Translations under genes and position numbers: made by a program
Shown here: positions 22,452 to 55,141 of the stretch, piece by piece
How positions within the stretch are numbered: the stretch's first letter is position 1
Layout: each line of letters begins with the position of its first letter
Source of the DNA: Mobula hypostoma
Lineage: Eukaryota
Reading direction: 5' to 3'
Assembly (NCBI RefSeq): GCF_963921235.1
Contig: NC_086108.1
Location: 7,440,001 to 7,504,000, forward strand
DNA: 64,000 nucleotides
The notes under the pieces: model-generated
What the model was told of the DNA's origin: nothing
What the model saw: only the letters and a program-made list of their open reading frames with translations
The model's database searches: none

Positions 22452-22487
22452 GGTCGACGTTTCAGGCCGAGACCCTTCGTCAGGACT
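22452..22487 (-). ncRNA. Minimal type I hammerhead ribozyme motif (Penelope pLTR)
   Basis: Reverse strand AGTC-CTGACGA-A-GGGT-CTCG-GCCT-GAAA-CG-TC-GACC. Confidence 0.7.
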
Positions 22488-23277
22488 AACTGAAGGAAGA
22501 GTGAGTAAGGGATTTGAAAGCTGGAGGGGGAGGGGGAGATGCAAAATGATAGGAGAAGACAGGAAGGGGAGGGATAGAGCCAAGAGCTGGACAGGTGATA
22601 GGCAAAAGGGGATACGAGAGGATCATGGGACAGGAGGTCCGGGAAGAAAGACAAAGAGGGGGGGAACCCAGAGGATGGGCAAGAGGTATATTCAGAGGGA
22701 CAGAGGGAGAAAAAGGAGAGTGAGAGAAAGAATGTGTGCATAAAAATAAGTAACAGATGGGGTACGAGGGGGAGGTGGGGCCTTAGCGGAAGTTAGAGAA
22801 GTCGATGTTCATGCCATCAGGTTGGAGGCTACCCAGACGGAATATAAGGTGTTGTTCCTCCAACCTGAGTGTGGCTTCATCTTTACAGTAGAGGAGGCCG
22901 TGGATAGACATGTCACCTTATATTCCGTCTGGGTAGCCTCCAACCTGATGGCATGATCATCGACTTCTCTAACTTCCGCTAATGCCCCACCTCCCCCACG
23001 TACCCCATCTGTTACTCATCTTTATGCACACATTCTTTCTCTCACTCTCCTTTTTCTCCCTCTGTCCCTCTGAATATACCTCTTGCCCATCCTCTGGGTC
23101 ACCCCCCCCCCTTGTCTTTCTTCCCGGACCTCCTGTCCCATGATCCTCTCGTATCCCTTTTGCCTATCACCTGTCCAGCTCTCGGCTCCATCCCTCCCCC
23201 TCCTGTCTTCTCCTATCATTTTGGATCTCCCCCTCCCCCTCCAGCTTTCAAATCCCTTACTCACTCTTCCTTCAGTT

Positions 23278-23313
23278 AGTCCTGACGAAGGGTCTCGGCC
23301 TGAAACGTCGACT
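23278..23313 (+). ncRNA. Minimal type I hammerhead ribozyme motif (Penelope pLTR)
   Basis: AGTC-CTGACGA-A-GGGT-CTCG-GCCT-GAAA-CG-TC-GACT: CUGANGA/GAAA core, GUC cleavage triplet, stem I AGTC/GACT. Confidence 0.75.
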
Positions 23314-23489
23314 GCACCTCTTCCTAGAGATGCTGCTTGGCCTGCTGCGTTCACCAGCAACTTTGATGTATGTTGCTTGAATTTCCAGCATCTGCAGAAT
23401 TCCTGTTGTTTGCGTACTCTAGTTTTAGATTGCCCAACCCTGGGGGAAAACAACTGTGTGCATTCACCTTATATGTGCCCCACGTGATG

Positions 23490-23885
23490 TTGTCATAATC
23501 ACCAACAGGTACCGTGTTGTATGATATGGGCGACCGTGGTCTTTCCATGAACTTGATTGTTGTTGGCAAATTTTTCCACAGTAGTGGTTTGCCATTGCCG
23601 CCTTCTGGGCAGTGTCTTTACAAGTCGGGTGACCCCAGCCATTATCAATACTCTTCAGAGATTGTCTGCCTGGTTTCAGTGGTCGCATCACCAGGACTTG
23701 TGATCTGCACCGGCTGCTCATACGACCATCCACCACCTACTCCCATGGCTTCACGTGACCCTGATCGGGGCTGGGGAGGGACTAAGCAGGTACTACACCT
23801 GCCCAAAGGTGACCTGCAGGCTGGCAGAGGGAAGGAGCGCCTTACACCTCCTTTGGTGGAAACGTATCTCCACCCCACCATCCTA
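23490..23885 (-). mobile_element. Short non-autonomous retroposon (RTE/Vingi-like 3' tail)
   Basis: GAAGGCxATGGCAAACCACTxCTG...TTGCCAAxAACAATCA tail; related copies at 27630, 40700, 43010-43466, 50090 and 62495. Superfamily uncertain. Confidence 0.55.
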
Positions 23886-24027
23886 CATAATGTCAGTTCT
23901 CTGTCTCCTAAGCGCTAATGAATGAAGTCCTAACCTGCCCAATCATTTTCTATAACTCAGTCTTCAAGTCCTGGCCACATCCTTGCAGATCTTCTCTGCA
24001 CTCTTTCCAGGTTAATGTCATCTTAGC

Positions 24028-24245
24028 GTGGCACAGTGACGTAGCGGTTAGCATAATGCTGCACAGTGCCAGCAACTGGAAGATTGGGGTTTAATTCCTT
24101 AAAGAACTCTGTACGATCTCTCCGTGACCACGTGGATTTCCTCTGGGTGCTCTGGTTTCCTCCCACAGTCCAAAAAACCTGCGAGTTGGGGTCAGTAAGT
24201 TGTGGTCACACCATGTTGGCGCCGTAAGTGTGGGGACACTTGTGG
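24028..24245 (+). mobile_element. V-SINE/HE1-like SINE
   Basis: tRNA-like head (GTAGCGGTTAGC...GGTTTAATTCC) plus GGTTTCCTCCCACAGTCCAAA domain. Confidence 0.7.
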
Positions 24246-25399
24246 GCTAAGGGTGAAAGATAAGAAGTTTAAGGGGAAGATGAGGGAAACTTCTTCACGA
24301 TGAGGGTGGTGAGAGTGCGGAACGAGCTGCCAGCACAAGAGGTGCATGCGAGCTCAATTTCAACTCTCAAGGACAGGTACGTGGATGGTAGGAGTATGGA
24401 AGGAAATAGTCCCAGGGTAGGTCAATGGGCACAGGCAGTTTAAATAGTTCAGCATGGAGTAGATGGGCTGATGTGCTACACTGTTCTACGAGCATAATTT
24501 TTCTACAACACTCCCCAGGGCCCATCCATTCACTGTGAAATTTCTACTCTCAAAGCGCAACTCTTCACACTTCATCTTATGGAATAAAGGAAATTACACA
24601 TCCTTTTATATTTTGGAAAGTGTTGATGGAATGTTGTGGAAAAGTTCTTAACAACTTTAAGCCGTGCACTTTCTGCTGACTTCTGATCTCCAGGAATCAT
24701 GCCCACGGGCACCGGACAGTACATCCCAAGAGAGCTTAGTTTGACCCTGGTTAGATCTTGTGAGCATCTCTTGCAGTGAAGCTTTTAATTCTGTCACTAA
24801 AATTCTGTGGCCTGCAATAAAGCCTAAGATATTTTTGCAATGAGATTACATCACCCACAAGTAAGGTCATTTCACTCCCTGGAGAACAAATCATTTTAAA
24901 GCCACAGATTGGAAATTCCCCAAGTATATCTCTCCACCCTCTTAACAGCTATTGGTCTCCAAATGTCTCCAGAATGTGGGTTGGTTTTACATAGGAAAGG
25001 CTCAGGCCTTATCTTTATCTTTGAAGGATCGCAGCTTGAAACGTCCGCAGTTTGTTCACTTCCTCAGAAGCTGCCTGACCTGCTGAGCTCCTCCAGCATT
25101 TTGTGCATGTTGCTCTGGATTTCCAGTGTCTGCAGAACCTCTTGTGTTTGTGAACCTGGTACGTTTACTCATCTCAGGCTGGGACAAGGTTCCAGGGGAC
25201 CCTAAGAATTTTGCACAGTACTGTATATTAACCCTTTCATTCCCAGGATCATTCTCATGAGCAAGAAAGGACCTTTATCTTAACATTACGATCTACCTTG
25301 TCACGACTTTTGCACTGCACTTTCCCAGTAACCGTAAGACTTAATTCTGTTATTGTTTTTTGTTCTTGATGTTCTGACGTGACAATATGATCTGTATGG

Positions 25400-26180
25400 A
25401 TGGCATGCAAGACCAAGTTTTCACTGTACCAGGTACATTTGACAATCAGAATCAGGTTTATTACATGTTGTGAAATTTGTTCAGTTTGCGGCAGCAGTAC
25501 AATGCAATACATAATAAATTGAAAAAATGTGAATTACGGTAAGTATACGTATGTACATTAAATAGGTAAATTAAACAAAGCAGTACAAAAACAGAAAATT
25601 TTTTAAAAAGCAGTGAGGCAGTGTTCATGGGCTCATTGTCCATTCAGAAATCGGATGGCAGAGGGGAAGAAGCTGTTCCTGAATCGTTGAGTAAGTGCCT
25701 TCAGGCTCCTGTACCTCCTCCCTGATGGTAACAATGGGAAGAGGGCATGTCCTGGGTGATGGGGGAGGGGTCCTTAACGATGGACGCTGCCTTTCTGTGG
25801 CGTCGCTCCTTGAAGATGTCTTGGATACCGTGGAGGGTGATACCCATGATGGAGCTGACTAATTTTACAATCCTCTGCAGCTTGCTTTGATCCTGTGCAG
25901 CAGCCCCCCCTCCCCCCTCCGTACCAGACGGTGATGCAGCCAGTTAGCGTGCTCTTCACAGTGTTTTCAACTGTTTCAGGTGACAAATCAAGTACCCTCA
26001 AACTCCTAATGAAATATAGCCACAGCCTTGCCTCCTTTATAGCTGCATCAATATGTTGGGTCCAGGTTAGATTCTCAGAGAAATTGACAACTTGAAATTG
26101 TTCACTCTTTTTACTGGTGATGCCTCTATGAGGATTGGTTTGTGTTCCTTCGTGAAGTCCACAATCTTACTGATGTTGAG
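25400..26180 (-). mobile_element. Rex/Babar-type LINE 3' fragment
   Basis: STLTGCITVWYG motif and 3' region shared with 42400-42950 and 51400-52080. Confidence 0.7.
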
Positions 26181-26183
26181 TAT

Positions 26184-27426: not shown

Positions 27427-28309
27427 TTGAGGTTTAGTGGCTGAAGTCGTAGTGAGTCATTTTTTATGGCTCAGTATTTGAGCAGATCTCCGAGTGAGTG
27501 TGAACCCGGATCAGATTTATTATTGTTGTCACAAAATTTGTTGTTTTGGGTCAGCAGTACAATACAAAACATAAAAAATATTATAAGTTACAATAAGAAA
27601 TAAATACTAAGCATAAAAATGACTATAAGCTCACAACATGTTATGTGCCATGTTGTATGGCATGGGAGATCATGGTCTTTCCATAATTGTTCTTGGCAAA
27701 TTTTTCCACAGAAGTGGTTGCCATTGCCTTCTTCTGGACTATAAGTTACAATACATTAAAAAAATAGATAGTGCGAAAGAGGAATAGCGAGGGAGGGTAT
27801 ATGCACTATTCAGAAATCTGATGGTGGAGGGGAAGATACTGTTCTTAAAACATTGAGTGTGGGTCTCCAGACTGCCGTACCTCCTCCTTGAAGGTAGTCA
27901 TGAGAAGAGAATATGTCCTGGATGGTTAGAGTCCTTCATTATAGTCCTCCAAGACCATAAGATATAGGAGCAGAATTAGGCCATTTGGCCCATCAAGTCT
28001 GCTCCGTCATTTCATCATGGCCGATCCGTTTTCCCTCTCAGCCCCAGTCTCCTGCCTTCTCACCGTATCTATTCATGCCCTGACTAATCAAGAATCTACC
28101 AACTTCTGCCTTAAAGAGTCCTCTGTACTCTTTCAACCTTATTTACATCTTTCCTTACCTACCTACAGGAAAGATGCAAAGAAGGTAGAAAGAGCACAGA
28201 CAACATTTACATGGATGCAGTCGGCTCTGGGGGACCTGAGTTATATGGAAAGGTTGTCTAGGTTAGGATCTTATTCCTTTGAACATAGAAGATTGAGAGG
28301 AAATAGCTA

Positions 28310-28545
28310 CAAACACGAGAAAGTATGCAGATACTGGAAATCCAAAGCAACATTCACATATTGCTGGAGGAACTCAGCAGGTCAGGCTGCATCTGTGGAA
28401 AAGAGTAAACAGTCATGTTTTGGGCCGAGATCCTTCATCAGAACTGGACAAGAAGGGTTTCAACCTGAAACATGGACTGTTTACTCTTTTCCACAGATGC
28501 TGCCCAAACTGCTGAGTTCCTTCAGCAGTTTGTGTGTGCTGCTGT
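28310..28545. mobile_element. Short fold-back element made of two head-to-head Penelope pLTR tails
   Basis: GGAACTCAGCAG...GCATCTGTGGAAAAGAGTAAACAGTC is mirrored by GACTGTTTACTCTTTTCCACAGATGC...CTGCTGAGTTCC; degenerate hammerheads meet at the centre. Confidence 0.7.
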
Positions 28546-29056
28546 AGAAATGGCCATTTCCTTATCGGCAAGGTCCAAACCCAAGGAGGATAGACTCACA
28601 ATAATCAGTGGAACATTTGTGAGTGGGCTGGGGTGATGAGGATAATATTTGCACCCAGAGGGTGCTGTGGGTTTGGGACTCCCCGTCAGATCTGTACTTA
28701 CTGCCCGTTACACCACTGGCAGCAACAAAGGTGCTCCATCTCTGTCTGTACCATCACACTCAGACATAGAAGGACTCTTCATTGCTGTTTCTGTAACAAT
28801 TTTGTTTGACCAGTCAGGGTTGTTAGCCCTGAGCTGAACCCCCGAACCTGTGGGCCACTCCCAGTCAGGCCTCTACCCTTTGGCCTGTTTGGCATGGGTG
28901 ACCCTACCAAGAATGACTCCAGAAAACATAGCTCTCCTGGTTATTGAAGCATACAAGCCTCCAACCCCAACAACAAGGTTGTGGTCATCTTGGCCCAAAA
29001 TATCTACTCTTTATTCATTTCCATAGATGTTGCCTGACCTGCTGAGTTCCTCCAGC

Positions 29057-29058
<2 letters not shown>

Positions 29059-29108
<50 letters not shown>

Positions 29109-29167
29109 TGTGTGTGTGTGTGTATCTGTGTGTGTGTGTGTGTGTGTGTCTGTGTGTGTGTGTGTGT
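29059..29167 (+). repeat. (TG)n microsatellite grown from a pLTR tail
   Basis: Follows CTGAGTTCCTCCAGCATT, where other copies have only a few TG units. Confidence 0.95.
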
Positions 29168-29804: not shown

Positions 29805-30183
29805 GTTTGTGCTCTGCATTGTAGTAACACTGCGGCTTCTTCTGTACTTTGCATTTCCAGATAGTGAATTTCACCGTGAACCAGGACCTGCGGCAGATAG
29901 GCAACGCTTTCATCTTAGTCTATTTTAACATTAAAATTTTATTATTTATATGCAATTTTCCATTCCTCCTCCTGTGATAGGCGCCGATTGGCGAGGGGGT
30001 CAAGGGCTCCGAGATATCTCTGCGATGCGCTCCTGAAAAAAAAAGTGAAACTGTTCACGTGAGTTCCCAGTAACTGTATTTTATGAACCGTTTTCTCTTT
30101 TTGTGTACAAGGCTATTATTAACCCCAGACTGCAGAAATATCAGTTTCCCCTCCCCAACCTTCTCATTCTGCCTTCTTCCCCC

Positions 30184-30220
30184 ATTCCTGATGAAGGGTC
30201 TCGGCCCGAAATGTCGCCTG
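30184..30220 (+). ncRNA. Hammerhead ribozyme motif, core intact, stem I weakened
   Basis: ATTC-CTGATGA-A-GGGT-CTCG-GCCC-GAAA-TG-TC-GCCT inside a pLTR fragment (30150-30295). Confidence 0.5.
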
Positions 30221-30524
30221 TTTAATCATTTCCATTGACGCTGTCTGACCTGCTGAGTTCCTCTAGCATTTTGTGTGTGTTACTCTGGATTTCTTTACTG
30301 TTTACTGTTTAGAACTGTGCGTAAATCATATATATATATACCAGATGGATACTTTGTATCCTGTTGTCTCCTGGTTACTTTGTTACTGTATATTTTTTTG
30401 TCTGTAAACATTGCGACTCAGTGTCTCGGAGCAGGGGGTTTGAATGTGCTCTCTTCGGCAAGTGTGTGGGTTTGTGCGTGTTGACAGGTGGCGATCTGGG
30501 GAGGCGGAGAGCGCTCTCTCTGCT

Positions 30525-30770
30525 TTAGAGCAACACACACACACACACGCAAAATGCTGGAGGAACTCATCAGGTCAGGCAGCATCCGTGGAGGGGAAGA
30601 AGCAGCCGACGTTTTGGGTCGAGGCCCCCCATCAGTGAATAAACGCCGACTGTTTATTCCTCTCCAATAGATGCTGCCTGACCTTGCTGAATTTCCCTAG
30701 CACTTTGCGTGTGTGCGTGTGTGTGTGTTGCTCTGGATTTCCAGCATGTGCAGAATCTCTTGTGTTTATG
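30525..30770. mobile_element. Short fold-back Penelope pLTR-derived element
   Basis: AGGTCAGGCAGCATC...CAGCCGACGTTT is mirrored by AAACGCCGACTG...GATGCTGCCTGACCT, with (CA)n/(TG)n ends. Confidence 0.7.
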
Positions 30771-30844
30771 AGCTGCTTTTTAAAGACATCTGGCTGATGT
30801 TGCGATGCGCATCGTTCAGCGGTGAAGTCGATGCCCCGTGGAGC

Positions 30845-30942: not shown

Positions 30943-31854
30943 AAAAGTAGAGGCAGTTTTAAGTGTTGCATCAGATTAGTGTGCCTCAAACCTGTCATGG
31001 CGAGAGAATCGGAATTTTTAAAGCGAGGATGCTTCTTCAACGGCTTGCGTTTCCCACGCATGTTTGGAAAAAAAGTCACTTGCTGTTACAACAGTACACT
31101 TTGCTCATTGTGTTTGGAGAAAAAACATTCCAGTCGCTGCCTTAACATTTAAAAGTTATCGTTCCATTCCGTCACCCTAAGAAAGGGCTTGCATTTATTT
31201 CTGGAGGCTCTCGAGGCGCGTTTTTTGGCAAAAGGATGCACTTTCGCAGTGCCCCCCTCCCACCCCATTGTAACAAATCGCGATCAGTTCCTATATACTT
31301 TTCCATTGCTAAACGCAACCCGAGAGGTAATTCAGCCCGGAACTGTAGTGGAAACATCACGGTTTTGACGTCTTGAAGTGAAGGTGTTGGCATTTTTGGG
31401 CGAAGAAGTGCGTGCCCGTGTTTGAGGGCAGGGTCGCTTTTAAGTGTGGCTCACACCCCGCTGGAAACGTGGGCGTTTGTTTGCAAACAGTCAGCGGCCG
31501 GGGCGCGCCGAGCGCCGCCTTGTGGGCTGGAGAGGGACTGCAGCGAGCCCGGTCTGAACGGGCAGAGGGATTCCCTCCGCAAACTTCTCCCTCTCTGTAC
31601 CGGCACCATCTATCATCCTCCCCCGTCTATACGACTAGTCCCAATGACAAAAAAAAACTAATATGCCAAGAAATCTGAGATTATTTAAAGAATAATCTCA
31701 AGAGTCCTGAAGAAGAGCTTCGACCCCCAAACGTCGACTGTTTACTCTTTTCCATAGATGCTGAACTGTTGAATTCCTCCAGTATTTCGAATGCGTTGCT
31801 CTGGATTTCCAGCCTCTGCAGACTTTCTCGTGTTTGTTATTTAAAGAATATATC

Positions 31855-32442
31855 ACACAGTGGCCACCTTGTCAGCCAATCATGTGCATGCAGACATGGT
31901 CAAGAGGTTCAGTTTTTGTTCAGACTAAACATGAAAGTGAGGAAGAAACGTGATCTAAGTGACTAAGTGATTGTTGGTGCCAGATGGGATCGTTTGGGTC
32001 ATCTCAGAAACTGTTGCTGTCCTGAGATTTTCACACACAACTTCCCTACAGCAGGGGTTCCCATCCTTTTTTATACCATGGACCCCTACCATTAACCGAG
32101 GGGTCCATGGACCCCAAGTTGGGAAACTCTGCTCTAGAGTTTACAGAGAACAGTGTGAAAAACAGGAAAAAAAATCCACTGAGCTGCAGCTCTGTGGGTG
32201 AAAACACCTTGTTAATGAGAGAGGTCAGAGGAGAATGGCCAGACTGGTTCAAGCTGACAGGAAGGTGACAGTAACTCAGATAACCACACATTACAACAGT
32301 GCTGTGCAGAAGAGCATCTCTGAATGCACAACAGGTCAAACGTTGAAGTGAATGGGCCACGGCAGCAGAAGACCACAGACATGGACCGAGTGGCCACTTC
32401 ATTAGGTACAGGCGATTCCTGATAAAGTGGCCACTGGGTGTG
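31855..32442 (+). mobile_element. Internally deleted Tc1/mariner element
   Basis: Termini CACACAGTGGCCAC and GTGGCCACTGGGTGTG; the internal ERGQRRMARLVQADRKVTVTQITTHYNSAVQKSISECTT resembles a Tc1 DNA-binding region. Confidence 0.7.
32052..32131. mobile_element. 80-bp hAT-type MITE nested in the Tc1 remnant
   Basis: CAGGGGTTCCCA...TGGGAAACTCTG TIRs; imperfect 8-bp TSD CCCTACAG/CTCTAGAG. Confidence 0.7.
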
Positions 32443-33802
32443 CAAGACATGATTTTGGTTTCCCTCTCAGGAAGTGATATGAAGCACTTCCAAAACTTGT
32501 TGCTTTTGTTTTGAATTTCCAGCATCTGCCATATTCCTGCCTGTGATCTGGGTGGTTAGAAGACTCGGCAACGGCCGATCTCTCGTTTTCCAGGCCAGTA
32601 AATCGGGGGGGAGGGGTTGGCTCCTGCCCTGAGATTGAAGCTCGGCAGAGACAGGGATTGATGCATCAAGTGCTGATATAACAAATCCTAACTCCTAATT
32701 GCCAAGAGCTCATTGAGCGAGGGGCAGAAATTGGCAGATGGGGTGGAAAGTGTGGTGGGGGGTAGTTTGAGGAGACTTGGTATATCACTAAAGACTTTTG
32801 CAAATTTCTACAGATGGAGAGCATTCTAGCTGGTTGTACCACCGTCTGGTGTTGGGGGGGGAGGTGGGGGCTGCACAGGATCAAAATAAGCTTCAGAAAG
32901 TTGTAGACTCTGCCAGCTCTTCGGGTCAGTAGCCTCCCCAGCATCAAAGTTCACAGTAAATTTATTGTCAAAGTACATGTATGTCACCACATACAACCAT
33001 AAGATTAATTTTCTTGTGGGCATACTCGGTAAAACTATAGAATAATGACCAAAATAGAATCAATGAAAGACCGCACCAACTCGGGCATTCAACTAATGTG
33101 GACAAGACAACACACTGTGCAAATAGAAAAAGAAAGAAAGAATAATAATAAATAAATAAGCAGTAAATATCAAAAATATGAGATAAGGAGTCCATGCCCT
33201 GAAAGTGAGTCCATTGTCCACTGAGGACATTTACAAAGGGTGATGACGCAAAAAGGTGGCGTCCATCATGAAGGACCCCCATCAGCCAGAACATGCCCTC
33301 TTCTCATTGGTATCATCAGAGAGGAGGTACAGGAGCCTGAAGACACACACTCAATGATTCAGAAACAGCTTCTTCCCCTCTGCCATCAGATTTCTGAATG
33401 GACATTAAACTCATGAACACCACCCCACTACTTTTCCTCTCTTTTTGCACTTCAAATTTTATTTAATTTTTAAAATATATTTCTGATTGTAATTTATAGG
33501 TTTTTATTACTGTTATGTACTGCGATGTTCTGACCATAAGATACAGGAGCAGAATTAGGCCATTTGGCTCTTCAAGTCTGCTCCGCCATTTCATTGTGGC
33601 TGTTCCATTTTACTCTCAGCCCCAGCCTCCTGCCTTCTCCCGGTGTTCTGACTAGTCAAGAAACTATCAAACTCTGCCTTAAATACACCCAATGAATTGG
33701 CCTCCACAGACGCCATCGCAACGAATTCCACAGATTCCCCTCTTCTGGCTAAAGAAATTCCTCCTCATCTCTGTTCTAAATGGATGTACCTCTATTCTGA
33801 GA

Positions 33803-34170
33803 CTGTGTCCTCTGGTCCTAGACTCACCCACCATAGGAAACACCCTCTCCACATCCACTCTATCTGTGCCCTCTGGTCCTAGACTCCCCCGCTATAGGAA
33901 ACATCCTCTCCACATCCACTCTATCTGTGCCCTCTGGTCCTAGACTCCCCCACCATAGGAAACATCCTCTCCACATCCACTCTATCTGTGCCCTCTGGTC
34001 CTAGACTCCCCCACCATAGGAAACATCCTCTCCACATCCACTCTATCTGTGCCTTCTGGTCCTAGACACCCCCCACTATAGGAAACATCCTCTCCACATC
34101 CACTCTATCTGTGCCCTCTGGTCCTAGACTCCCCCACCATAGGAAACATCCTCTCCACATCCACCCTATC
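33803..34170 (+). repeat. ~61-bp tandem repeat x6 expanded inside a minus-strand CR1 3' end
   Basis: CTGTGCCCTCTGGTCCTAGACTCCCCCACCATAGGAAACATCCTCTCCACATCCACTCTAT repeated; single-copy equivalent at 44495-44545. Confidence 0.9.
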
Positions 34171-36130: not shown

Positions 36131-36894
36131 CACCTTCCATGTACCCATCCAAACTTGTACAACTGTGTACGTACTTCGATCATCCAAAGTCCAATCCACA
36201 AACCTCATCAATTAAACCTTGCCCAAGACCCAGAACTCCAAAATACATATACGTTACTGTACTACATTGAGATTAATCCTGCAATCACTTTGACCCACGA
36301 CCGTCAGGAAGGAGGTACAGGAGCATCAGGACTCGGACTGCCAGACTGGGCAACAGCCTCTTCCCTCAGACTGTGAGACTGATGAATACCCTGTCACTCC
36401 CGAGGTCTCGTCACTACCACAGCGAGCTGTTTACTGTCTACCTTTGCTGTGCACTACATACATATTCAGTTCTATTTTATTAACTTATTTATGGTATCAT
36501 TTAGTTTTATGTGCTGTGTGTGTGTCTGGCTGAAGGTTGTTTCATTTAGTTGTGTATATGTACAGTCAGATGATAATCAAGTTGGATTTCTACTTGTACT
36601 TGAATTTTCTATCACCTGCCAGCTTGACCTTCTTCCTGCTCCCCTCCATCTCCTTATTCTGGCTCCCCTCTCCTTCCTTTCCAATCCTGACGAAGGGTCT
36701 CAGCCTGAAACTGTTTATTCCTCTCCGTAGATGCTGCCTGACCTGTGACGGTCCTCCAGCATTTTATGTGTCTTACAGTAAATGTGTATTTTTTCTGGTG
36801 CCTTGGAGTTGTGTCAGGTGCTATAAAAATGCACGTCTCTCTGTGCGATAGCAGTAATGGGTGCTGTTTTGATTGCCAACAGGTGGAGAGGAGC

Positions 36895-39926: not shown

Positions 39927-40969
39927 AAGCTCCTGTACCTCCTGCCCGATGGCAGCAGTGAGAAGAAAGCATGGCCTGGATGGTGGGGTCCTTGATGTTA
40001 GATGCTGATTTCTTGCGGCAGTACTCTATGTAAATATCTCTCTGAAACCAAGCTGTTATGACCAGAGCTGGTGGTGGTCAACAGGATATAAAGGAGAATG
40101 TTTACCTGAAATGGAGGGAAACCCGCAAACAGACAAGCAATTCACACTGCTTGTAAGGAGTTTGTACGTTCTCCCCGTGGTCAACACCGTAGTGTAGTGG
40201 TTAGCACGTCGGTTTACAGTTCAGATAACTCGGGTTCAATTCCCACTGCTGTCTCTGTGGAGTTTGCATGTTTTCCACTGTGGTTGCGTGGGTTTGCTCC
40301 GGGTGCTCTAGTTTCCTCCCCCATAGCAGTTGGTAGGTGCATTGACCCTAAAGCTGTGATTGGGCTAGGGTTAAATCTGAATTAATAAAGAATAATAATA
40401 AATTAGTGTGGTAAGAACAAAGGAAAGACAGGACTGGAAAATCGTTGACTTAGTCTCAGTCAGACAAGAGATAACAACATTCCAGTGATAGCAGTTAATC
40501 TGTGAAATCACCAGTTTCAGGCCATGTGACACCTGCTACTGAAAACTAAGAAGCTTGTAGAAAAATACAAAAGCAACTGTAAAATTGCTGGGAAATTCAC
40601 TGAATTATTACATATATAGGGGTGATTATATTAAAAATAGAAGCAAGCATTGGAAACTTAAACCTGAAAAATAACAACTTTACACCCCAATTCAACACAT
40701 CATTCTGTGCTGTGTTATATGATGTTAGCGATCATGGTCTTTCCAGGACCATGATTGTTCTTGGCAGATTTTTCTACAGAAATGGTTTGCTATTGGTTTC
40801 TTCTGGGCAGCGTCTTTACAAGACGGGTAACCCCAGCCATTATTAATACTCTTCAGAGATTGTCTGCCTGGTGTCAGTGGTTGCATAACCAGGACTTGTG
40901 AAATACACCAGCCGCTCATACGACCATCCGCCACCTGCTCCCATGGCTTCATGTGACCCTGATGGGTGG

Positions 40970-41602
40970 GGACCTGACGCAGACTGGGAAACCGCTTTGC
41001 TGAACATCTACGCTCTGTCCGCCAGAGAAAGCAGGATCTCCCAGTGGCCACACATTTTAATTCCACATCCCATTCCTATTCTGACATGTCTATCCACGGC
41101 CTCCTCTACTGTAAAGATGAAGCCACACTCAAGTTGGAGGAACAACACCTTATATTCTGTCTGGGTAGCCTCCAACCTGATGGCATGAACATCGGCTTCT
41201 CTAACTTCCACTAAGGCCCCACCTCCCCCTCGTACCCCATCTGTTACTTATTTTTATACACACATTCTTTCTCTCACTCTCTTTCTCCCTCTGTCCCTCT
41301 GAATATACCTCTTGCCCATCCTCTGGGTCACCCCCCCCTTGTCTTTCTTCCCGGACCACCTGTCCCATGATCCTCTCGTATCCCTTTTGCCAATCACCTG
41401 TCCAGCTCTTGGCTCCATCCCTCCCCCTCCTGTCTTCTCCTATCATTTTGCATCTCCCCCTCCCCCTCCAACTTTCAAATCCCTTACTCACTCTTCCTTC
41501 AGTTAGTCCTGACGAAGGGTCTCGGCCCGAAACGTCGACTGCACCTCTTCCTATAGATGCTGCCTGGCCTGCTGCGTTCACCAGCAACTTTTATGTGTGT
41601 TG
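40970..41602 (+). mobile_element. 5'-truncated young Penelope-like element (GIY-YIG tail plus pLTR)
   Basis: Near-identical to 22915-23374 and to the reverse complement of 55044-55690; it interrupts the retroposon at 40700-40970. Confidence 0.9.
41505..41540 (+). ncRNA. Minimal type I hammerhead ribozyme, best-preserved copy
   Basis: AGTC-CTGACGA-A-GGGT-CTCG-GCCC-GAAA-CG-TC-GACT; predicted cleavage after C41536. Confidence 0.8.
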
Positions 41603-41993: not shown

Positions 41994-42325
41994 GTGAGTC
42001 CACCGGCGTTTCCTTTCAGGTCCTGTCTTTTGACTTCATGCAGTGTGATGGAAAACTCTCCAGCTGACTGGATGAGAACAGAGCCGACAACCCTTCACGT
42101 AGCAACTGGCACCATCCAGGATGAAAGCACAAGAGCTATTGGAAACCCAGAGCAACACCTGCAGAACACTGGAAGAATCTGATGAAGTGTCTCAACCCAA
42201 AACGTCGGGTGTTTATTCCTCTTCATGGATGCTGAGTGCCTCCAGCATATCGTGTGTGTTACCATCCAGATCAAACCAGCCGGTCAGCACTGGCTATAGC
42301 CAACCCTGTGCAAACGTCTCTCCAC

Positions 42326-43774: not shown

Positions 43775-44290
43775 GACAACACACACAAAATGCTGGAGGA
43801 ACTCAGCAGGTCAGGCAGCTTCTATGGAGACGTATAAACAGTCAACTCTTCCTCAGGACTGGAAAGGAAGTGGGGAGGACACCAGAATAAAAAGGTGGGG
43901 GGGTGGTGTGGGGAGGAGGATAGATAGTAGAAGGTGATAGGTGAAACCAGGTGGGTGGGCAAGGTCAAGGGTTGGAGGGGAAGCAACCTGATAGGAGAGG
44001 AGAGTGGACCATGGGAGAAAGGGAAGGAGGGAAGGTGATAGGCAGGTGAGAAGAGGTAAGGAGCCAGAGTGGGGAATAGAAGAGGGAAAGGAAAGGGGGG
44101 GGATTTTTTTTATCAGAAGGAGAAATCGATATTCGTGCCATCAGGTTGGAGGCTACCCAGACGGAATATAAAGTGCTTCTCCTCCGCCCTGAGGGTGGCC
44201 TCATCGCGGTACAAGAGGAGGCCATGGACCGACTTGTCAGAATGGGAACGGGAATGGGAATAGGAATTAAAATGTTTGGCCACTGGAAAT
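43775..44290 (-). mobile_element. Penelope-like element, older subfamily
   Basis: PVAKHFNS...EEKHFIFRLGSLQPDGTNIDFS GIY-YIG tail followed by a pLTR. Confidence 0.8.
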
Positions 44291-44959
44291 TCCACTGATT
44301 GATTTTCCCTCCCAACTCCATTCACCCGCCTTCTCCCCATAACCTTTGATGTCCTTACTAATCAGGGAACTATCAATGTCCACTTCAATACATCCAACGG
44401 CTGGTCCTGTGGCAACGAATTCCACAGGTTCACTGGACTTTGGCTCAAAAAGTTCCTCCTCAACTCTGCTCTAAAGTGACTTCCTTCTAGTTTGAGGTCC
44501 TATACTCCCCTGCTACAGGAAACATCCTCTCCACATCCACTGTATCAAGGCCCTTCAGTATTCAATAGGTTTCAATGAGACTCCAGTGAGTACAGGCCCA
44601 GAGCCATCAAAGGCTCCTCATATGTCCAGGGGAGAACGTACAAAGTCCTTAAAGGCAGCGGTGGGTTGCCAGTACTGCAATAGGGTTACATTGACCACTG
44701 GACTACCGTGCTGTTAAACTGCAGGCTCGTACGCCTCGGGTTCAGAGTTCGTAGGTGGTTCAGGTGGGTTGCGTTGGTGCCTTTGAGGAGATTGGGGAAG
44801 ATCAGGGACTAGAGTGCAGAGTTCTGACCCAGCAAGGCCTGCGTGTGTGTCTTCTATAAAAATATATAGAAGACATCATAACCCAACAATTTTCTTTAAT
44901 TGGACACCAAATCCCGAAATAGCCCAACTTGTATTTTTTTCCACTGTTTTTGTTAGGCA

Positions 44960-45170
44960 GAAACACAGAGGTTGCCAGTGAGATCGTGGAATGCTGCTGG
45001 GACTCAGCAGGTCAGGAAGCATCTATGGATTTCGGGCTGAGAAGGTGAAAGATCCCGGCCCGAAATGCCGACTGTTTACTCTTTTTCCATAGACGCTGCC
45101 TGTGAGTTCCTCCGGCGTTTTGTGTGGGTTACTCTGGATTTCCAGCTTCTGCAGACTTTCGCTTGTTTAT
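44960..45170. mobile_element. Short fold-back Penelope pLTR-derived element
   Basis: GACTCAGCAGGTCAGGAAGCATCTATGGA...TTCGGGC is mirrored by GCCCGAAA...TCCATAGACGCTGCCTG. Confidence 0.6.
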
Positions 45171-46629
45171 TATTGTTTATGTTTTGGTGCCGTCGACTCT
45201 CTCCCGGGCCAGCGATATGGATCCTGGCCAAGTTTGAGTTGGTCATTACCTCAAATGCCCTCAGTCTACACAGACTGCTGGACAAAGCTTAATGGTTATC
45301 TTGTTACATTACATCAAGAAGTTTGTTCAAGTCATTCCATACCTTAGGCTCTCTCACCTCAATAATCTTTAGAACTTCCCCTCTCCATTTCTGACCTCTG
45401 AATGGTCCCCAAATTTACTGATATGAGGGGATCGATTTCGAGGCAAATTAGTTCAGTTTTTATGATGCTCAGGTTTCTAGTTCTAGTTATGGTCACTCTT
45501 TTTTATTACTACTTTTGGGTGATTTTTGAATCAGGGCTGCCTGCAGGTAATGAACACCAGGCTGGACTGAGCTGAAATATGCCTTTTGGTTTTGGGTTTT
45601 ATATTCTGCGTTTTCGCTCATTTTTTTGGTTGCCATTTGTACATGATGTTTGCAGTTTGCCATTTGTACATGGGGGTGGGGGGAGGGGGTTTTGATGTTT
45701 GCAGTTTGCCTTTGAACGGGTTGGTTCCATGGTTCTTTGTTTTGTGGCAGTCTGTGGGAAAGACGGATTTCAAGGTTGTATGCTGCATACTTACTTAGAT
45801 AATAAATCTACTTTGAATCTTTGAAATGGAGGGTTATGTGGAAGGGAAGGTTTAGAGGAGATTGGGGCGAGCGAGGCACCCCTCCCCCATCCTAGCCATT
45901 TTTTACAGGAGCACCATCGAGTGTCCTGACCAGCTGCGTCACTGTCTGGTGTGGGAATGGCAAGGCAGCCTACTGTAAGTCCCTTCAAAGGACTGTGAGG
46001 ACCAACCAGAGTCTCTCTTTCACCCATTAGAGATATTTATCAGGAGCACTGTATACACAGGGCCCCTAGCCTTGACAATAACTCCCCCCAGCAATCTCTT
46101 TGAGGTACCATAGCATTCGGGCAAGGACTGTGAGGATGGGAAACAGCTCCTTGCCCCAGGGCCTGCCACCATTTCGGTCTCATCATGCTTGAAGCGCCAG
46201 TAGTGTTATACTGTTTACTTTTTAACTTGTCTCATAAATGCGCCTTGCTATTTGTTAATTTATTTGTGGTCATATTGTTTTACGTGTTGTGCACCTTGGT
46301 CCGGAGCAGCATTGCTTCATTTGGTGGTGTATACGTGTGCAGTTGACGGATGATAAACTTGAACTTGAGATTGATCTTGGAGTAGGCTCAAAGCTCAGCA
46401 CAACATGATGGGCTGAAGGGCCTGCAGTGAGCTGTGGTGTTCTGTGTTCTCTGTTCCCTGTCACCGTTGGGTCACTGCATAAACTTACACTTGAATGGTA
46501 CGGCTGTGTGGCGTCTCAAGGGCTGTAAACAGAGACTGCAGACTCAGTTAAAGTAAACAGTTTGTTACCTGCGTGCAGCAAAGCAGGCAGACAGAGATTT
46601 CCCAGCATCTGTCAGGGCACTGTCCATCT

Positions 46630-47165
46630 TTCAGTAATTTCTCCTTCCCTCCCCTTCGCTCTTTTTCCATTCTCCATTCTAGATCCCCTCTCACCCCTTC
46701 CCTTCTCCTCACCTGCCTATCACCGCCTTCTGGCCCCCCTTTTCCTTCCCTATCTCCCACAGTCCACTCTCTTCTCCTATCAGATTCCTCCTTCTTCAGC
46801 CTGTTATGTCTTCCACCCATCACCTCCCAGCTCCTCACTTCATTCCCCTCTCCCCACCCACTCATTCCCCCCTCACCTACCGTCTCCTCTCATTCCCTCC
46901 TTCCCTATTCCCCATGGTCGCCTGTCCTCTTCCATCAGTCTTCAGCACTTTACCACCCAGCTTCTCACTTCATCTACCCTCCCCTCACCTGGTCTCACCT
47001 ATTACTTGCCAGCTTGTACTCCTCCCACCTTCTTATTCTGGCCTCCTCTCCCTCCTTTCCAGTCCCGATGAAGGGTCTCGGCTTAAAATGTCGACTGATT
47101 ATTCCCCTCCATAGATGCTGCCTGACCTTCTGAGTTCCTCGGGCATTTTTTGTGTGTGTTACTGT
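46630..47165 (+). mobile_element. Penelope-like pLTR, older subfamily, with mutated hammerhead (47061-47096)
   Basis: Pyrimidine-rich body including CCACCCATCACCTCCCAGC, then AGTCCCGATGAAGGGTCTCGGCTTAAAATGTCGACT. Confidence 0.75.
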
Positions 47166-49319
47166 GAGTCCCCTGGTCTGGGCAACCTCTTCTCAGTGAT
47201 TACTTCTGCTTTCCTATACCAGCACCACCCCCCCCCCACTCCTTATTCCCAAAGGGTCCCAACCGGGGCTTCTGACCCAAACCAGTCACAAAAGATCCTC
47301 ACAAGTATTAATTATAAATGATTACAACTACTTATTAACAGAAAGATGCTGGAAATCCAGAGATCACTGTCATGATGTGCACCAGCAATATTGGAACCCG
47401 AGTATAGAGAAAAGACAGACTCGATGTAGACATGTTGACAGGAGTTTATTCATAATCATTCCAAAAGAACATCTGTGACACCGAGAGAATTAACACTCTC
47501 AAAACTAGGACCCCATGATTAGCACAAATCAGGCATCCGCTTAAACGATACAATTAACATGGAATTCCCGAGCCTGTCAAAATAAACGTAACAAGCTCAA
47601 ACAGAAGGCAGCAGGAAACAGCATTACGAAGAGTGAGTCGCTGAGGAATAACACAGGGAACTCCGAATGATGAATGACTGTGTTAAACAACAATTAAACA
47701 ATTCAGGTGCTCTAAAAACCTCCGAGCCCAATGCCCCGCTCATCCCAAATGCACACAAAATGCTCAGTAGGGGCTCAGTCTGAAACGTTGACTGTCTATT
47801 TCTCTCCATTGATGCTGCCTGTCCTGCTGAGCATTACAGCTAGTTGGGGGGGGGTTTGTTTCAGAGGCTTAGAGATTGTTCCCCTTCTTTCCTCCCCCTA
47901 CTACTCTCAGCAGGTTTCTAGAAAAAGGTGATGTTTAATATGGAGGTGAGGAGGAATCTCTTCCCTCAACAAACTTTTGGGGCTGTCTGTTTCCCAGGGT
48001 TTGAATGTCTAATACCAGACGGCCTCCATTGAGGGAGGTGGGGGTAGGTTCAGGGGGGATGTGAGGGGTAAGTTTTCTACTCAGAGAGTGGTGGATGCCT
48101 GGTATGTGCTGCCTGGTCTGGTGGTAGAGGCAAATACATTAGGGGCTTTTAAGAGACGTTTGGATAGGCACATGGATGGAACAGGGAGATGGAGGGATAC
48201 AAACATGGTATGGGTAGGAGGGATTGTTGTTTGGGTGTTTCTGATTTGCTTTTTAGCACAACATTGTGGGCCGAATGGGCTGTTCTGCGCTGTAGTGCCT
48301 TATGTCTTCCCCAGAGAGTCTTGAGGCTGGTCTTTAGGTCTGTAGGTCTGTGGTATATAGAACATAGACCAGTACAGGCCCTTCAGCCCGCGATGTTGTG
48401 CCGGCCCTTGAACCTGCTCTAAGATCAATCTAACGCTTCCCTCTTACATAGCCCTCCATCCACGTGCCTGCCTAAGAGTCTCTTAAATGTCTCGAATTCA
48501 TTTGCCTCAATCGACTCTTTACTCCTCTCCCTGCCTTGCTGAGTTCCTCCAGTACTTTTGTGTGTGAATCTATTCTCTCCCTTTTCTGGAACGTTTCTCA
48601 GCGCCGCGGACACTGTGGAATGGTCGCTCGGCTGCCGTGGCGTGTTCTTGTTAAAGGCAGTATGATCGTTCCTCTCGCCTCGGCTGACTCCGCGGGGTTG
48701 TTTAAGGAGCGCTGCTATCGGCTCTGTATATATACAGTGTTATTTATAGCGCCTGACTCACCGGGCAGCTGGCTGACAGTCCCGTGACTCTCTCTCTCTC
48801 TCTGTCTCCCGCCCCCTCGCTCTCTTCCCCCTTTCAGTCTGCCTTCCCCCTCTCTCACTCGTCTCTCCCCTCTCTCCCCCCTTCCCTCCCTCCGGACCCG
48901 GATCCAGCCGACCCCAGACTTCATCTGCTAAACAAACGGAGAGTCTTTGCCAGCACCCGGCGACTGGCGACTGGCGACTGCGCTTCCCATCTGTGTGCCC
49001 TCCCCCCAGCCCCACCACCAAACCGAAACCCTTTACAGGCACAGTCCCGTGGTTGAGGTGGGCGACGGAATGTGTGATGTGAGGATATTGGTGGGAGGGG
49101 TGGAGAGGTTTTGTGCCCGCGCAATCTTCGCTGATTTGACACAAACAACGCACTTTACTGCGGGTTTCGATGTACACATGACAAATAAAGCTAATCTTTC
49201 TCGTTCCTGTTTGATGACAGGAATTACTGGTGAGAACTTGCAGGCCAGGTCTGTGCATCATATTAAACCAGAGCTTCAGATGGTTAATAATAAATAAATA
49301 AAAATTATCTTTAAAATAA

Positions 49320-49980
49320 GGGCGTCTGCAGATGCTGGAAATCCAGAGCAACTTACACAAAATGCTGGAGGAACTCAGCAGGTCAGGCAGCATCTATGCA
49401 GAGGAATAAATGGTCAACATTTCGTTGAGAGACCCTTCACCAGGATTGGAAAGTAAGGGGGAAGAAGCCAGAATAAAAAAAGTTGGGGGAGGGACAGGAG
49501 GACCAGCTGGAAGGTAAACACAAGGGATTCTGCAGATGCTGGATAACCACAATGACACGCACAAAGCTGGAGGAACTCAGCATCTATGGAAATTAATAAA
49601 CGGTCGACGTTTCAGGCAAAGACCCTTCTTCAGGACTGGAAAGGAAGGGGGAAGATGCCAGAATAAAAAAGGTGGGGGGAGGGGAAGAAAGACAGCTGGA
49701 AGGAGATAGGTGGGTGGGAAAGGTCAAGGGCTGGAGAGGAAGGAATCTGATAGGAGAGGAGAGTGGATCGTGGAAAGGGAAGGAGGGGACCCAGGGGGAA
49801 GTAATTGGCAGGTAAGAAGAAGTAAAAGGTCAGCGGAGAATAGAGGAAGGAGGGGGGGAGGTGGAATTTGTTTACCAGAAGGAGAAATCGATATTCATAC
49901 CATCAAGTTGGAGGCTACCCAGACGTTGTTGGTGTTGTTCCTCCACCCTGAGGGTGGCCTAATCTTGCAACAAGAGGACC
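49320..49980 (-). mobile_element. Penelope-like element with tandem pLTR tails (two degenerate hammerheads)
   Basis: CTGCAGATGCTGGA...GACCCTTCxxCAGGAxTGGAAAG...GCCAGAATAAAAAA repeated at ~49326 and ~49530; the GIY-YIG tail follows. Confidence 0.75.
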
Positions 49981-50789: not shown

Positions 50790-51380
50790 TCATAGCCATA
50801 CTTTATTGATCCTGGGGGAAATTGCTTTTCATTACAGTTGCACCATAAATAATAAATACTGTAGTAATAAAACCTTAAATAGTTAAATAGTAATATGTAA
50901 ATTATGCCAGTAAATTATGAAATAAGTCCAGGACCAGCCTATTGGCTCAGGGTGCCTGACCCTCCAAGAGAGGAGTTGTAAAGTTTGATGGCCACAGGCA
51001 GGAATGACTTCCTATGACACTCTCTGCTGCATCTCGGTGGAATGAGTCTCTGGCTGAATGTACTCCTGTGCCCACCCAGTACATTATGTAGTGGATGGGA
51101 GACATTGTCCAAGATGGCATGCAACTTGGACAGCATCCTCTTTTCAGACACCACCGTCAGAGAGTCCAGTTCCATCCCCACAATATCACTGGCCTTACGG
51201 ATGAGTTTGTTGATTCTGTTGGTGTCTGCTACCCTCAGCCTGCTGCCCCAGCACACAACAGCAAACATGATCGCACTGGCCACCACAGACTTGTAGAACA
51301 TCCTCAGCATCGTCCGGCAGATGTTAAAGGACCTCAGTCTCCTCAGGAAATAGAGACGGCTCTGACCCTTCTTGTAGACA
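50790..51380 (-). mobile_element. Rex1-type LINE 3' end
   Basis: VYKKGQSRLYFLRRLRSFNIC...FAVVCWGS...RKSFLPVAIKLYN. Confidence 0.85.
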
Positions 51381-51394
51381 GTTGGAAGTTGATG

Positions 51395-52085
51395 ATCAGA
51401 ATCAGGTTTTAGTATCACTGGCATATATCGTGAAAATTGTTGTCTTCATTGCAGCAATACATTGCCATAATAGGAAAAGTTGTGAATTACCGTAAAAAGA
51501 TATATATAGTTAAATTAAACAAGTAGTGCAAAAGTAGTGAGGTAGTGTTCATAGGTTTGATGTCCATTCAGAAATCGGGTGGCAGAGGGGAAAAAGCTGT
51601 TCCTGAATCGTTGAGTGTGTGTCTTCAGGCTCCTGTACCTCCCCCCTGATGGTAGCAATGAGAAGAGGGCATGTCCTGGGTGATGGGAGTCCTTAATGAT
51701 GGATACTGCCTTTTTGAGGCATCGCTCCTCGAAGATGTCCCGGATACCACGGAGACTAATGTCCATGATGGAGCTGACTAAGTTTCCAACTTTCTGCAGC
51801 TTATTTCAATCCTGTGCAGTAGCCCCACCCCCACCGCCACCCCCATACCAGACAGTGATGCAGCCAGTTAGAATGCTCTCCACAGTACGTCTGTAGAAAT
51901 TTACAAGTGTCTTTTGTGACAAACCAAATCTCCTCCAAACTCCTAATGAAATGTAGCTGCTGTTGTGCCTTCTTTGTAGCTGCATCAATATGTTGATCCT
52001 CAGATACATTGACATCCAGATATTTGAAATTGCTCACCCTTTCCATTTCTGATCCCGCGATGAGGACTGGTGTGGGTTCACTCAT
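51395..52085 (-). mobile_element. Rex/Babar-type LINE 3' end
   Basis: NFYRRTVESILTGCITVWYG and HPGHALFSLLPSGGRYRSLKTHTQRFRNSFFPSA. Confidence 0.85.
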
Positions 52086-53363: not shown

Positions 53364-53397
<34 letters not shown>

Positions 53398-53534
53398 AGC
53401 AACCAGTGGGGACCAGTCCAAGGTACGTGGGCTCATTAACTTCTTGTCCCACCACTTGCTGTGTAAAACTGACCCCATGATATTTAAACCTATTTAAGAC
53501 AAATGCCATAAAAATACAACAAATGTTTTGATAA

Positions 53535-53577
53535 ATGTAGCAATGATGAATCAGGCCAGTATAACCCACCTCAGGGA
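53535..53577 (+). promoter_or_regulatory. miR-221/222 8mer (ATGTAGCA, 53535-53542) and miR-125 8mer (CTCAGGGA, 53570-53577)
   Basis: Exact 8mer seed matches 27 nt apart; both miRNA families are reported PUMA repressors in mammals. Confidence 0.6.
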
Positions 53578-54417
53578 ACAAACCTAGAGAAACACTTCCA
53601 CCCTGTTCCGTATCTGTGTAGGTATATATTTTTTTGGTCTCATCCAAAGGGACGTCAAGTGTTTTGTGTTTTATTTCCTATCAAACAGGCTGGTATTTAT
53701 TTTTCCGTGTAATTGTTCGATCGGAGTCCTCGTTTAATCTTTTCCGCTCCTCGGAAGAACTGTACCTTCAAGTGAAATTTACAGGCAAAGAAATGCAAAA
53801 AAGTATGTCTAGTCCTGGCCTGTTGCTGAGGCAGGCATGTCCATGATCTGCCCCCTTCACCCAGCCCTTCTGTGGGATTTGCTTAATCTGACTCCATCCC
53901 CTCAGTTGGTGGAGGGTGACCACTGCAGGTGATAATCACTCCCCCCTCCCACCCAGCTCCCCACTGATGTGACTGCGCACAGGCAGACCACAGCTTAAAG
54001 ATGGGCTCTTCCTGACCTCTCCAACTCGAACACTAGCGGGTGCAGCTAATGACTGAGCCACTTAGGGGAGACAAACACTTGCGACGATGGAATACAGAAT
54101 TGTCGGGCGTCCGGGCAGGACGGGAGATGGATAATCGGTTGGCTGTTTGGTATTCAACGAGTTGGAAATCACTCCTTCTGCCCTGTCACCTGAGACGTAT
54201 TCCACCATTCTGTGACATACTGAGCAACCCCCCTATCCCAGGTAACTCCTGGCTCCTAGAAGTTATTGACACCTTCCTCCCCAGTGAGGGGTAAAGAGCA
54301 GGGTCCTGGGGTTTTGTATAGATATGTGTATACCTAATTTACTTCGTTCCTAGTAATACTCTTTAGATTCCTTTTTTTATTGTTTTTGGAAGACTCATTT
54401 TTGTAAAATCATTTTCC

Positions 54418-54423
54418 AATAAA
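54418..54423 (+). terminator. Polyadenylation signal AATAAA
   Basis: Preceded by U-rich sequence and followed by the GU-rich TTGTGTGTTCTTT about 20 nt downstream. Confidence 0.6.
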
Positions 54424-54679
54424 AATTGAAACAGAGAGGTTAGCCTTGTGTGTTCTTTGGAACGGGGGGGGCACGGTGGAGGGGTGATGGAGAGTGGATG
54501 AGCTGGTGCTTGAGCTGATAACACCTGGATAACAAAGATTTTGCTTCCTGAATACTTTTGGGTGTATCCTATGGATTTTGGGCTGCTGATCTGAGAATCA
54601 CCATGAAATATCCCTTTCACGCATTTTTAAAAATCACCTGTATTTGTTATTGCAATTCATAATTCAGGCCAGAATATGG

Positions 54680-54960
54680 CTTGAGAGGGCATAGTTTTAA
54701 GGTGCTTGGAAGCAGGTACAGAGGAAATGTCAGGGTAAGATATTTACGCAGAGAGTGGTGAGTGCGTGGAATGGGCTGCCGGTGACGGTGGTGGAGGCGG
54801 ATACAATAGGATCTTTTAAGAGACTCCCAGACAGGTACATGGAGCTTAAAAAATAAAGGGCTGTGGGTAACCCTAGGTAATTTCTAAAGTAAGTCCACGT
54901 TCGGCACAGCATCGCGGGCCGAGGGGCCTGTACTGTGCTGTAGGTTTTCTATGTTTCTAG
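54680..54960 (+). mobile_element. CR1 3' end
   Basis: RGHSFKVLG...TQRVVSAWNGLP and TTCTATGTTTCTA tail. Confidence 0.8.
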
Positions 54961-55105
54961 TTTATGCCAAGATTAAAGAAGGCATTTTTGTAGTCCACAA
55001 ATCAAACAGGCCATCAATGACAGGCAATTCAAAGAACTTCTAGCAACACACATAACAATTGCTGGTGAACACAGCAGGCCAGGCAGCATCTGTAGGAAGA
55101 GGTGC

Positions 55106-55141
55106 AGTCGACGTTTCAGGCCAAGACCTTTCGTCAGGACT
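55106..55141 (-). ncRNA. Minimal type I hammerhead ribozyme motif
   Basis: Reverse strand AGTC-CTGACGA-A-AGGT-CTTG-GCCT-GAAA-CG-TC-GACT. Confidence 0.75.

Follow-up and report, generated by a model that had tools for sequence, protein, structure and literature searches.

Minimal hammerhead motifs in 3' ends left by an abundant Penelope-like retrotransposon, probably Neptune-type and of ray origin

Minimal hammerhead ribozymes (min-HHRs) in the pseudo-long terminal repeats (pLTRs) of metazoan Penelope-like elements (PLEs) were described in 2014 by Cervera and de la Pena (PMC4209133; this and the other papers cited are drawn on for the parts of them that were available). They are characterised by an extra residue that lies between 9 and 10.1, a G10.1-C11.1 pair and a palindromic 15.2-16.2, and their abundance was put at about 4,000 in coelacanth and 9,000 in Xenopus. 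A CX2-5CxxC linker is common to the Neptune and Nematis types of PLE (PMC8557442), and an optional tail of 30-40 bp occurs at one end of Penelope elements (PMC8557442, PMC11167929). More recently non-LTR retrozymes have been reported in one chondrichthyan genome, and one of nine Xenopus dimers was found to cleave (Li et al. 2026, bioRxiv 10.64898/2026.07.22.740005). Here we describe a dense family of hammerhead motifs in a 64-kb stretch of contig NC_086108.1 (the window, meaning all 64,000 nucleotides analysed). It is highly probable that the copies derive from a Penelope-like retrotransposon present in large numbers, of which they are the 3' ends and which carries the known minimal hammerhead; the element is probably of Neptune type and its host probably a ray, the motif likely being kept by selection in a few source elements and the scattered copies likely being inert 5'-truncated leftovers.

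An iterated nhmmer profile seeded on eight window copies found 23 copies of one repeat at the cut-off of E < 0.01 (25 at E <= 0.5, the weak matches at 26970, E 0.13, and 37415, E 0.089, being dropped), and the reversed window used as a control gave no profile matches. All 18 positions named in an earlier sequence-only reading of this DNA coincide with one of the 23 copies, the weakest being that at 17836 (E 0.003, 8/11 core bases, 11/35 mismatches), and a further five had been overlooked (28988+, 30641+, 43898-, 45042- and 48504+). That reading estimated about one motif per 3 kb outside the 79-bp satellite (1182-17785, 16.6 kb, about 210 units); the abundance stands, and the measured density is slightly higher at one per 2.1 kb. 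The 23 copies represent about 18 insertions, with four inverted pairs and one tandem pair among them (Table 1).

A strict descriptor (CUGANGA, stem II of at least 3 bp, GAAA, UH and stem I of at least 3 bp) passed five of the 23 copies, with C3 at 22483-, 23282+, 41509+, 49633- and 55137-, compared to a mean of 0.045 and a maximum of 1 in 200 dinucleotide shuffles of the non-satellite part. This excess supports a real hammerhead, with the proviso that the five belong to one family and so are really one event. Three motifs are perfect and two more are complete with one mismatch in stem I, an A-C in the motifs at 22452 and 49602. The motifs at 22452, 23278, 41505 and 55106, previously called essentially intact, are all complete apart from this mismatch at 22452, while 49602, which had been listed as degenerate, proved to be complete with 11/11 core bases; those at 22452 and 23278 are the two arms of a single insertion. 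Other CUGANGA..GAAA strings (760, 33337, 56807, 62719 and 21434-) failed the descriptor and were rejected as hammerheads. An Rfam scan of the window returned 12 weak matches at E <= 5, none to a hammerhead family, and the miRNA-like ones at 28374-28516 and 30575-30681 are in fact inverted Penelope arms. A metagenome scan with a 20-nt downstream motif hit 16 loci where the match was confined to 20-25 nt around the pattern, and these were set aside as chance.

The motif opens with stem I (4-5 bp) and CUGANGA; an additional A then leads into stem II, of 3 bp and a U-G wobble, followed by GAAA and ACGU. The palindrome ACGU, which is present in all five complete copies, replaces stem III, and the predicted cut falls after GUC (C17 at 41536 for the 41504-41541 motif, in standard numbering). 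All 11 bases of the core CUGANGA/GAAA/UH are kept in six of the 23 copies and in both subfamily consensuses (see below), the extra A between 9 and 10.1 is found in 17 of the 19 copies spanning the site, and when the stems were aligned 85.9% of cells were paired, compared to 16-47% when the alignment was slid. Every min-HHR sequence trait given in the available part of PMC4209133 is present, in agreement with the earlier identification of a minimal type I hammerhead with a palindromic ACGU for stem III in a Penelope 3' repeat.

The same reading had pointed to a series of G-C, G-U and A-U at the first stem II pair, always preserving pairing. The series is present as described, with G-U in four, G-C in three and A-U in a single copy of the eight ungapped ones, but a covariation check on these eight, which are closely related and show little variation, found none of eight pairs changed on both sides. 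C11.1 is one half of a CpG of which the other half is the essential G12, and C/T at this position is a standing variant of the family in contigs from all four public sequencing runs examined, out of 23 listed. These four consist of contigs and showed no position at which many molecules start or stop, which has no bearing on cleavage. In these eight copies the series does not appear compensatory, because no pair changes on both sides and the C/U difference is a CpG site and a standing variant.

Remnants of a GIY-YIG endonuclease lie directly upstream of six of the 23 copies, including all five complete motifs (tblastn). The frame 55445-56050(-) had 11 relatives among 265 candidates (best in Mobula at 82% and Hypanus at 79% identity), which makes a ray the likely host; it matches the GIY-YIG Pfam family weakly and below cut-off (E 0.042), compared to E 5e-4 to 1e-3 for its relatives. 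In these database relatives reverse transcriptase (RT) motifs of YIDD type precede a CX4CxxC linker and a GIY-YIG domain; the CX4CxxC linker is also found in the frame itself and, judged by sequence, indicates Neptune or Nematis. Neither a full-length element nor an RT remnant of the Penelope family was found in the window, all copies being truncated before the RT. Most 3' ends lie around +91 to +99 or around +131 to +142, counted from C3, giving a short and a tailed form with an optional tail of about 35-40 nt. Among 17 insertions searched for target duplications, two had duplications beyond chance (15 and 14 bp), two had perfect ones within the chance range (10 and 9 bp) and 13 had none, the maximum in 300 random pairs being 12 bp. 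The window copies show the published Penelope anatomy of inverted arms, partial tandem, target duplications and optional tail. Downstream of the motif and close to the short 3' end, UGCUG...CAGCA arms are retained in both subfamilies, with a loop between them that differs (41570-41590(+) and equivalent sites). This is a possible second RNA element, although minimum-energy folds did not choose the hairpin. The GT-rich short 3' end also runs into, or seeds, (TG)n microsatellites at 28988-29167 and 30527-30771.

Two subfamilies could be distinguished, A with four young arms lying 1-6% from their consensus, and B with 18 older arms at 9-20%, and the complete motifs are mostly in the youngest copies. 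The A and B consensuses differ at 3/38 motif positions and 0/11 core positions compared to 21/62 downstream (p = 0.003) and 23/30 upstream, and contigs placed on an A copy change over to flanks of B type exactly where the motif ends, at 41505 and 41541, in three of the four public runs. This comparison together with the flank switching is the best evidence for what appears to be selection on the motif, in source elements. The sequence-only reading had named a lack of excess conservation of the core over the flanking pLTR, together with an absence of cleavage after GUC, as refuting its proposal, and among the 18 B copies no significant excess is seen (core substitutions 11/131, downstream flank 122/1004, p = 0.25). 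The whole 38-nt motif in fact decays faster than the flank (85/487 compared to 122/1004, p = 0.007) because of the four CpGs that it holds, CpG sites in B motifs being altered in 36 of 120 cases.

Two results weigh against an interpretation in which the motif is selected in source elements and the dispersed copies are inert. In B copies, substitutions at the 10 core positions outside CpGs are fewer than expected (5/116 compared to 12.1 expected, P = 0.019), and a column permutation gave p = 0.002 without G12 and p = 0.23 with it. We attribute this to B being a mixture of source lineages with differing flanks and a common core, and to the seeding of the profile on good copies, the alternative being weak selection on the copies themselves, and 18 B copies cannot separate the two. 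Further, both monomer and dimer are predicted to be inactive, with the double hammerhead at -13.9 kcal/mol compared to -34.1 kcal/mol for an extended duplex in models without catalytic-core scoring; such fold models ignore the tertiary contacts of the core and neither show nor exclude activity.

In the predicted fold of the 38-mer the core pairs with the ACGUC segment, and folding z-scores were not significant. The 25 nt upstream, a pyrimidine tract, is predicted to capture the core in four of seven copies and in both consensuses, through an anti-core helix (41484-41520(+) and equivalents) in which the tract pairs with the core and the 5' strand of stem II. This helix was beyond shuffles in three of the seven copies (0, 0 and 4 of 200, all subfamily A and so not independent) and within them in the other four (62, 17, 170 and 137 of 200), and on this modelling it is a lead only. 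Folds that occupy the core, either with the ACGUC segment or with the tract, would suit a motif that source elements keep as a signal for protein binding or reverse transcription, or as coding sequence, and that has lost cleavage. In Anolis, mutating the ribozyme did not lower insertion in vitro, and reads ending at the cut site were absent (PMC11167929). We nevertheless regard the loss of cleavage as unlikely. The 11 core bases are the same in both subfamilies while N7 and stem positions vary, as expected of catalysis, and the Anolis motif cleaves once protein is added (PMC11167929). A coding role is further opposed by the lack of an ATG in the subfamily A motif and by a 2-nt gap between A and B just downstream, both of which argue against a shared reading frame.

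The 5' ends of the arms are not random. Of 20 B arms (the 18 plus two weak inverted scraps, one start being ambiguous), 12 start between -16 and +21 of C3 (12/17 arms within -100 to +70, scan p = 0.0009; 11/17 inside the motif, p = 0.0002), in five of six inverted structures an arm begins within the motif, and none of the 20 starts at the predicted cut site (+24 to +32). When fragments beginning at +28, +45 and +60 were simulated, 80/80, 80/80 and 76/80 of them were recovered, so that neither the clustering nor the gap at the cut site is an artefact of detection. Since arms extend across the cut site without any beginning at it, reverse transcription probably used uncleaved RNA as its template.

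This clustering at the ribozyme could also be expected if the short copies were a non-autonomous family in their own right, resembling SINEs or retrozymes, with a short RNA beginning there as template, in line with the earlier proposal that the motif spread mainly by short non-autonomous copies. We find this quite improbable. The starts are spread over 38 nt rather than fixed, the flanks of the short arms recur in long arms extending as far as the endonuclease (43777-44326, 49515-49978), five short arms belong to inverted structures, which are typical of truncated Penelope insertions, and the tandem array of intact motifs that defines active retrozymes (bioRxiv 10.64898/2026.07.22.740005) is lacking. 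Since their 5' ends vary and their sequence is shared with the endonuclease-reaching arms, the short arms, which make up the majority, are read as truncated insertions with non-random starts. The proposal of non-autonomous spread is not supported, as all five complete motifs are on GIY-YIG arms, although the clustering of 5' ends at the ribozyme leaves copying from a short template some probability.

In a retrotransposon of the kind that we favour, the hammerhead of the source element would cut its RNA only as a dimer or with the help of the element's protein. The endonuclease, as in published Penelope work, would nick the target, and reverse transcription would begin internally on the RNA, either about 95 or about 133 nt downstream of C3, giving the short and the tailed ends. 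It would usually stop early, often at the ribozyme region, and sometimes restart as an inverted arm. Were a source element in partial tandem transcribed, its two hammerheads could pair via their ACGU palindromes and cut after GUC, slowly and probably aided by protein, processing the long transcript (from PMC4209133 and PMC11167929), and solo copies without a partner would decay.

More tentatively, the hammerhead region may itself mark where most insertions begin, although we would sooner doubt than assert this. RT would start internally about 95-135 nt downstream and then either run off at the RNA 5' end or stall and fold back at the uncleaved ribozyme, giving inserts of 80-150 nt and inverted pairs, with the upstream pyrimidine tract acting as an off-switch released by the element protein. 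Stalling of the RT at the motif has only modest support from folding. As RNA, the motif is predicted to be the strongest local fold over a span of 340 nt (-11.8 kcal/mol per 45 nt), but the tail comes close to it at -10, and as cDNA the motif is not the strongest. If this were true, the ribozyme would shape insert length genome-wide without cutting, and this would be an answer to the question of what Penelope hammerheads do.

The sequence-only reading had suggested that this genome may hold a very large ribozyme population. The very high density, the somewhat better keeping of non-CpG core bases than flank in B copies, and the abundance of the family sequence in sequencing runs guessed, without a record, to be RNA would all be in keeping with many dispersed copies being working ribozymes kept by host selection, for example by cutting pre-mRNAs in trans-dimers. 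However, 18 of the 23 motifs are incomplete, 7 of 16 older copies have a changed G12, 10 of 18 older (B) copies are without the 5' strand of stem I and the sole same-strand tandem has a broken partner. With the motif decaying faster than its flank, complete copies mostly being the youngest, and single min-HHRs having failed to cleave in vitro (PMC4209133), host-selected working copies appear very improbable, and the window, judged from the copies it holds, contains a large relic population, most members of which are likely inert, and not a large population of working ribozymes. Chance resemblance to a hammerhead would fit the shortness of the motif, the lack of an Rfam hammerhead family and the non-significant folding z-scores, but is extremely improbable given five complete motifs compared to 0.045 expected, a Penelope 3'-repeat position and full set of min-HHR traits predicted beforehand by PMC4209133, and selective conservation between subfamilies.

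Table 1. Penelope-family insertions and hammerhead motifs in the window (starts are relative to C3).
Feature	Position	Strand	Details
Very decayed hammerhead remnant (weak)	17834..17875	+	just past the 79-bp satellite
Young subfamily A insertion	22376..23423		two 5'-truncated head-to-head arms with GIY-YIG remnants on both; minus arm with short 3' end, plus arm tailed; perfect 15-bp target duplication 22376-22390/23409-23423; 6-nt palindrome at inversion junction
Complete hammerhead	22451..22488	-	core 11/11; one stem I A-C mismatch; first stem II pair G-U
Perfect hammerhead	23277..23314	+	first stem II pair G-U
Short tailed B arm	25022..25160	+	starts at +4
Inverted pair, short B arms	28311..28543		joined within hammerhead; both motifs broken
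Short B arm	28988..29069	+	starts at +11; continues into (TG)n microsatellite
B arm	30146..30293	+	core 11/11; stem I 2/4; palindrome broken
Inverted pair, short B arms	30527..30771		starts at 0 and +21; both motifs broken
Short tailed B insertion	31681..31850	+	starts at stem I; 14-bp target duplication; G12C
B arm	36609..36774	+	6-nt deletion across cut site
5'-truncated subfamily A copy	40963..41602	+	GIY-YIG 3' remnant 40963-41208, pyrimidine-rich 3' untranslated region (UTR), hammerhead, short 3' end
Perfect hammerhead	41504..41541	+	first stem II pair G-C
Short B arm and weak inverted tail arm	42111..42269		starts at C3; 9-bp direct repeat at ends (within chance range)
Subfamily B copy	43777..44326	-	GIY-YIG remnant; 15-nt deletion in hammerhead
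Inverted pair, short B arms	44990..45173		both motifs broken
Subfamily B copy	46703..47166	+	long 3' UTR; hammerhead U4C and G12A
Short B arm and weak inverted tail scrap	47752..47831		starts at +7
Short decayed B arm	48504..48566	+	
Older subfamily B partial tandem	49312..49978	-	arms 49978-49515 then 49515-49312, head to tail
Tandem arm	49978-49515	-	GIY-YIG remnant and complete hammerhead 49601-49638
Tandem arm	49515-49312	-	broken hammerhead 49411-49448
1-kb 5'-truncated subfamily A copy	55034..56054	-	10-bp target duplication; frame 55445-56050 with linker and degenerate GIY-YIG
Perfect hammerhead	55105..55142	-	first stem II pair A-U

The 79-bp satellite unit is itself without a hammerhead. 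Just to the left of the satellite is a weak match to the endonuclease end (939-1011, E 3e-4) and just to its right the decayed hammerhead at 17834-17875, and over 48 nt the unit resembles, at 82-84%, 3' UTR sequence at 46812-46858 in another copy (E 9e-6, none in the reversed control). The array seems to have grown within an old Penelope copy, in its 3' UTR. Elsewhere there is a broken LINE-type RT region at 57927-60387(+), with an RVT_1 match of E 3e-27 at 58724-59734, and fragments similar to it at 61018-61506(-) and 35067-35537(-), all unrelated to the Penelope family and which we take to be CR1-like. Other retroelement fragments are at 50939-51445(-), which matches Pfam ALKBH8_N (E 2e-9), and at 25774-26166(-), without a Pfam match. 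Two short inverted-repeat elements (32379-32445 and 28110-28212) gave weak miRNA-family matches below the gathering score, and tandem arrays of 61 bp and 95 bp units lie at 33803-34171 and 39702-39932.

Compared to the min-HHRs of PMC4209133, the motifs found here are alike in being type I, with no stem III beyond the palindrome, an extra nucleotide, G10.1-C11.1 and a 4-5-bp helix I, and in occurring mostly as solo copies on truncated elements, with opposite-strand pairs 100-700 bp apart; those of PMC4209133 number thousands per genome. They differ from the Schistosoma min-HHRs, in which helix II is 7-8 bp, as helix II here has 3 bp plus a U-G wobble, and they differ in host, which is a cartilaginous fish; in supplement file 2 of that paper shark, skate, Callorhinchus and Leucoraja have no matches. 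Should the whole genome be like this part of it, its density, judged by the five complete motifs present in 47 kb, would be far higher than in the genomes of PMC4209133.

The carrier resembles the endonuclease-bearing (EN+) Neptune/Nematis PLEs (PMC8557442, PMC3846280) in its C-terminal GIY-YIG domain, CX2-5CxxC linker, 5' truncation and partial tandems, and in its inverted 5' arm, palindromic junction, link to microsatellites and target duplications, which measure some 8-10 bp or more. It differs in that the window is without a full-length copy, and in the clustering of 5' ends at the ribozyme, which is absent from the available descriptions of those elements. As in the Anolis Poseidon element PAc (PMC11167929) there are two 3' ends downstream of the hammerhead, and uncleaved RNA, the main substrate of PAc, is also the likely template here; PAc belongs to the Penelope/Poseidon clade and its open reading frame starts inside the hammerhead, whereas subfamily A has no ATG there. 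Like the non-LTR retrozymes (bioRxiv 10.64898/2026.07.22.740005) the family has type I hammerheads from Penelope pLTRs and many monomers, but in those the tandem units each have a complete hammerhead, while here the only tandem pair (49312-49978) has a broken motif and no complete motif is overlapped by any of 21 tandem repeats. A literature search for a published description of this ray family found none, and of sharks and rays in general it found only the chondrichthyan of the 2026 preprint; the host may already be covered. What we have observed is an already described min-HHR in a Penelope-like element, to which it adds a host group and an unusually dense sample and not a new system. As the role of Penelope hammerheads is still open in the available parts of PMC8557442 and PMC11167929, this genome, in which a copy occurs every 2 kb and subfamilies of different age are present, provides strong material on which to test it.

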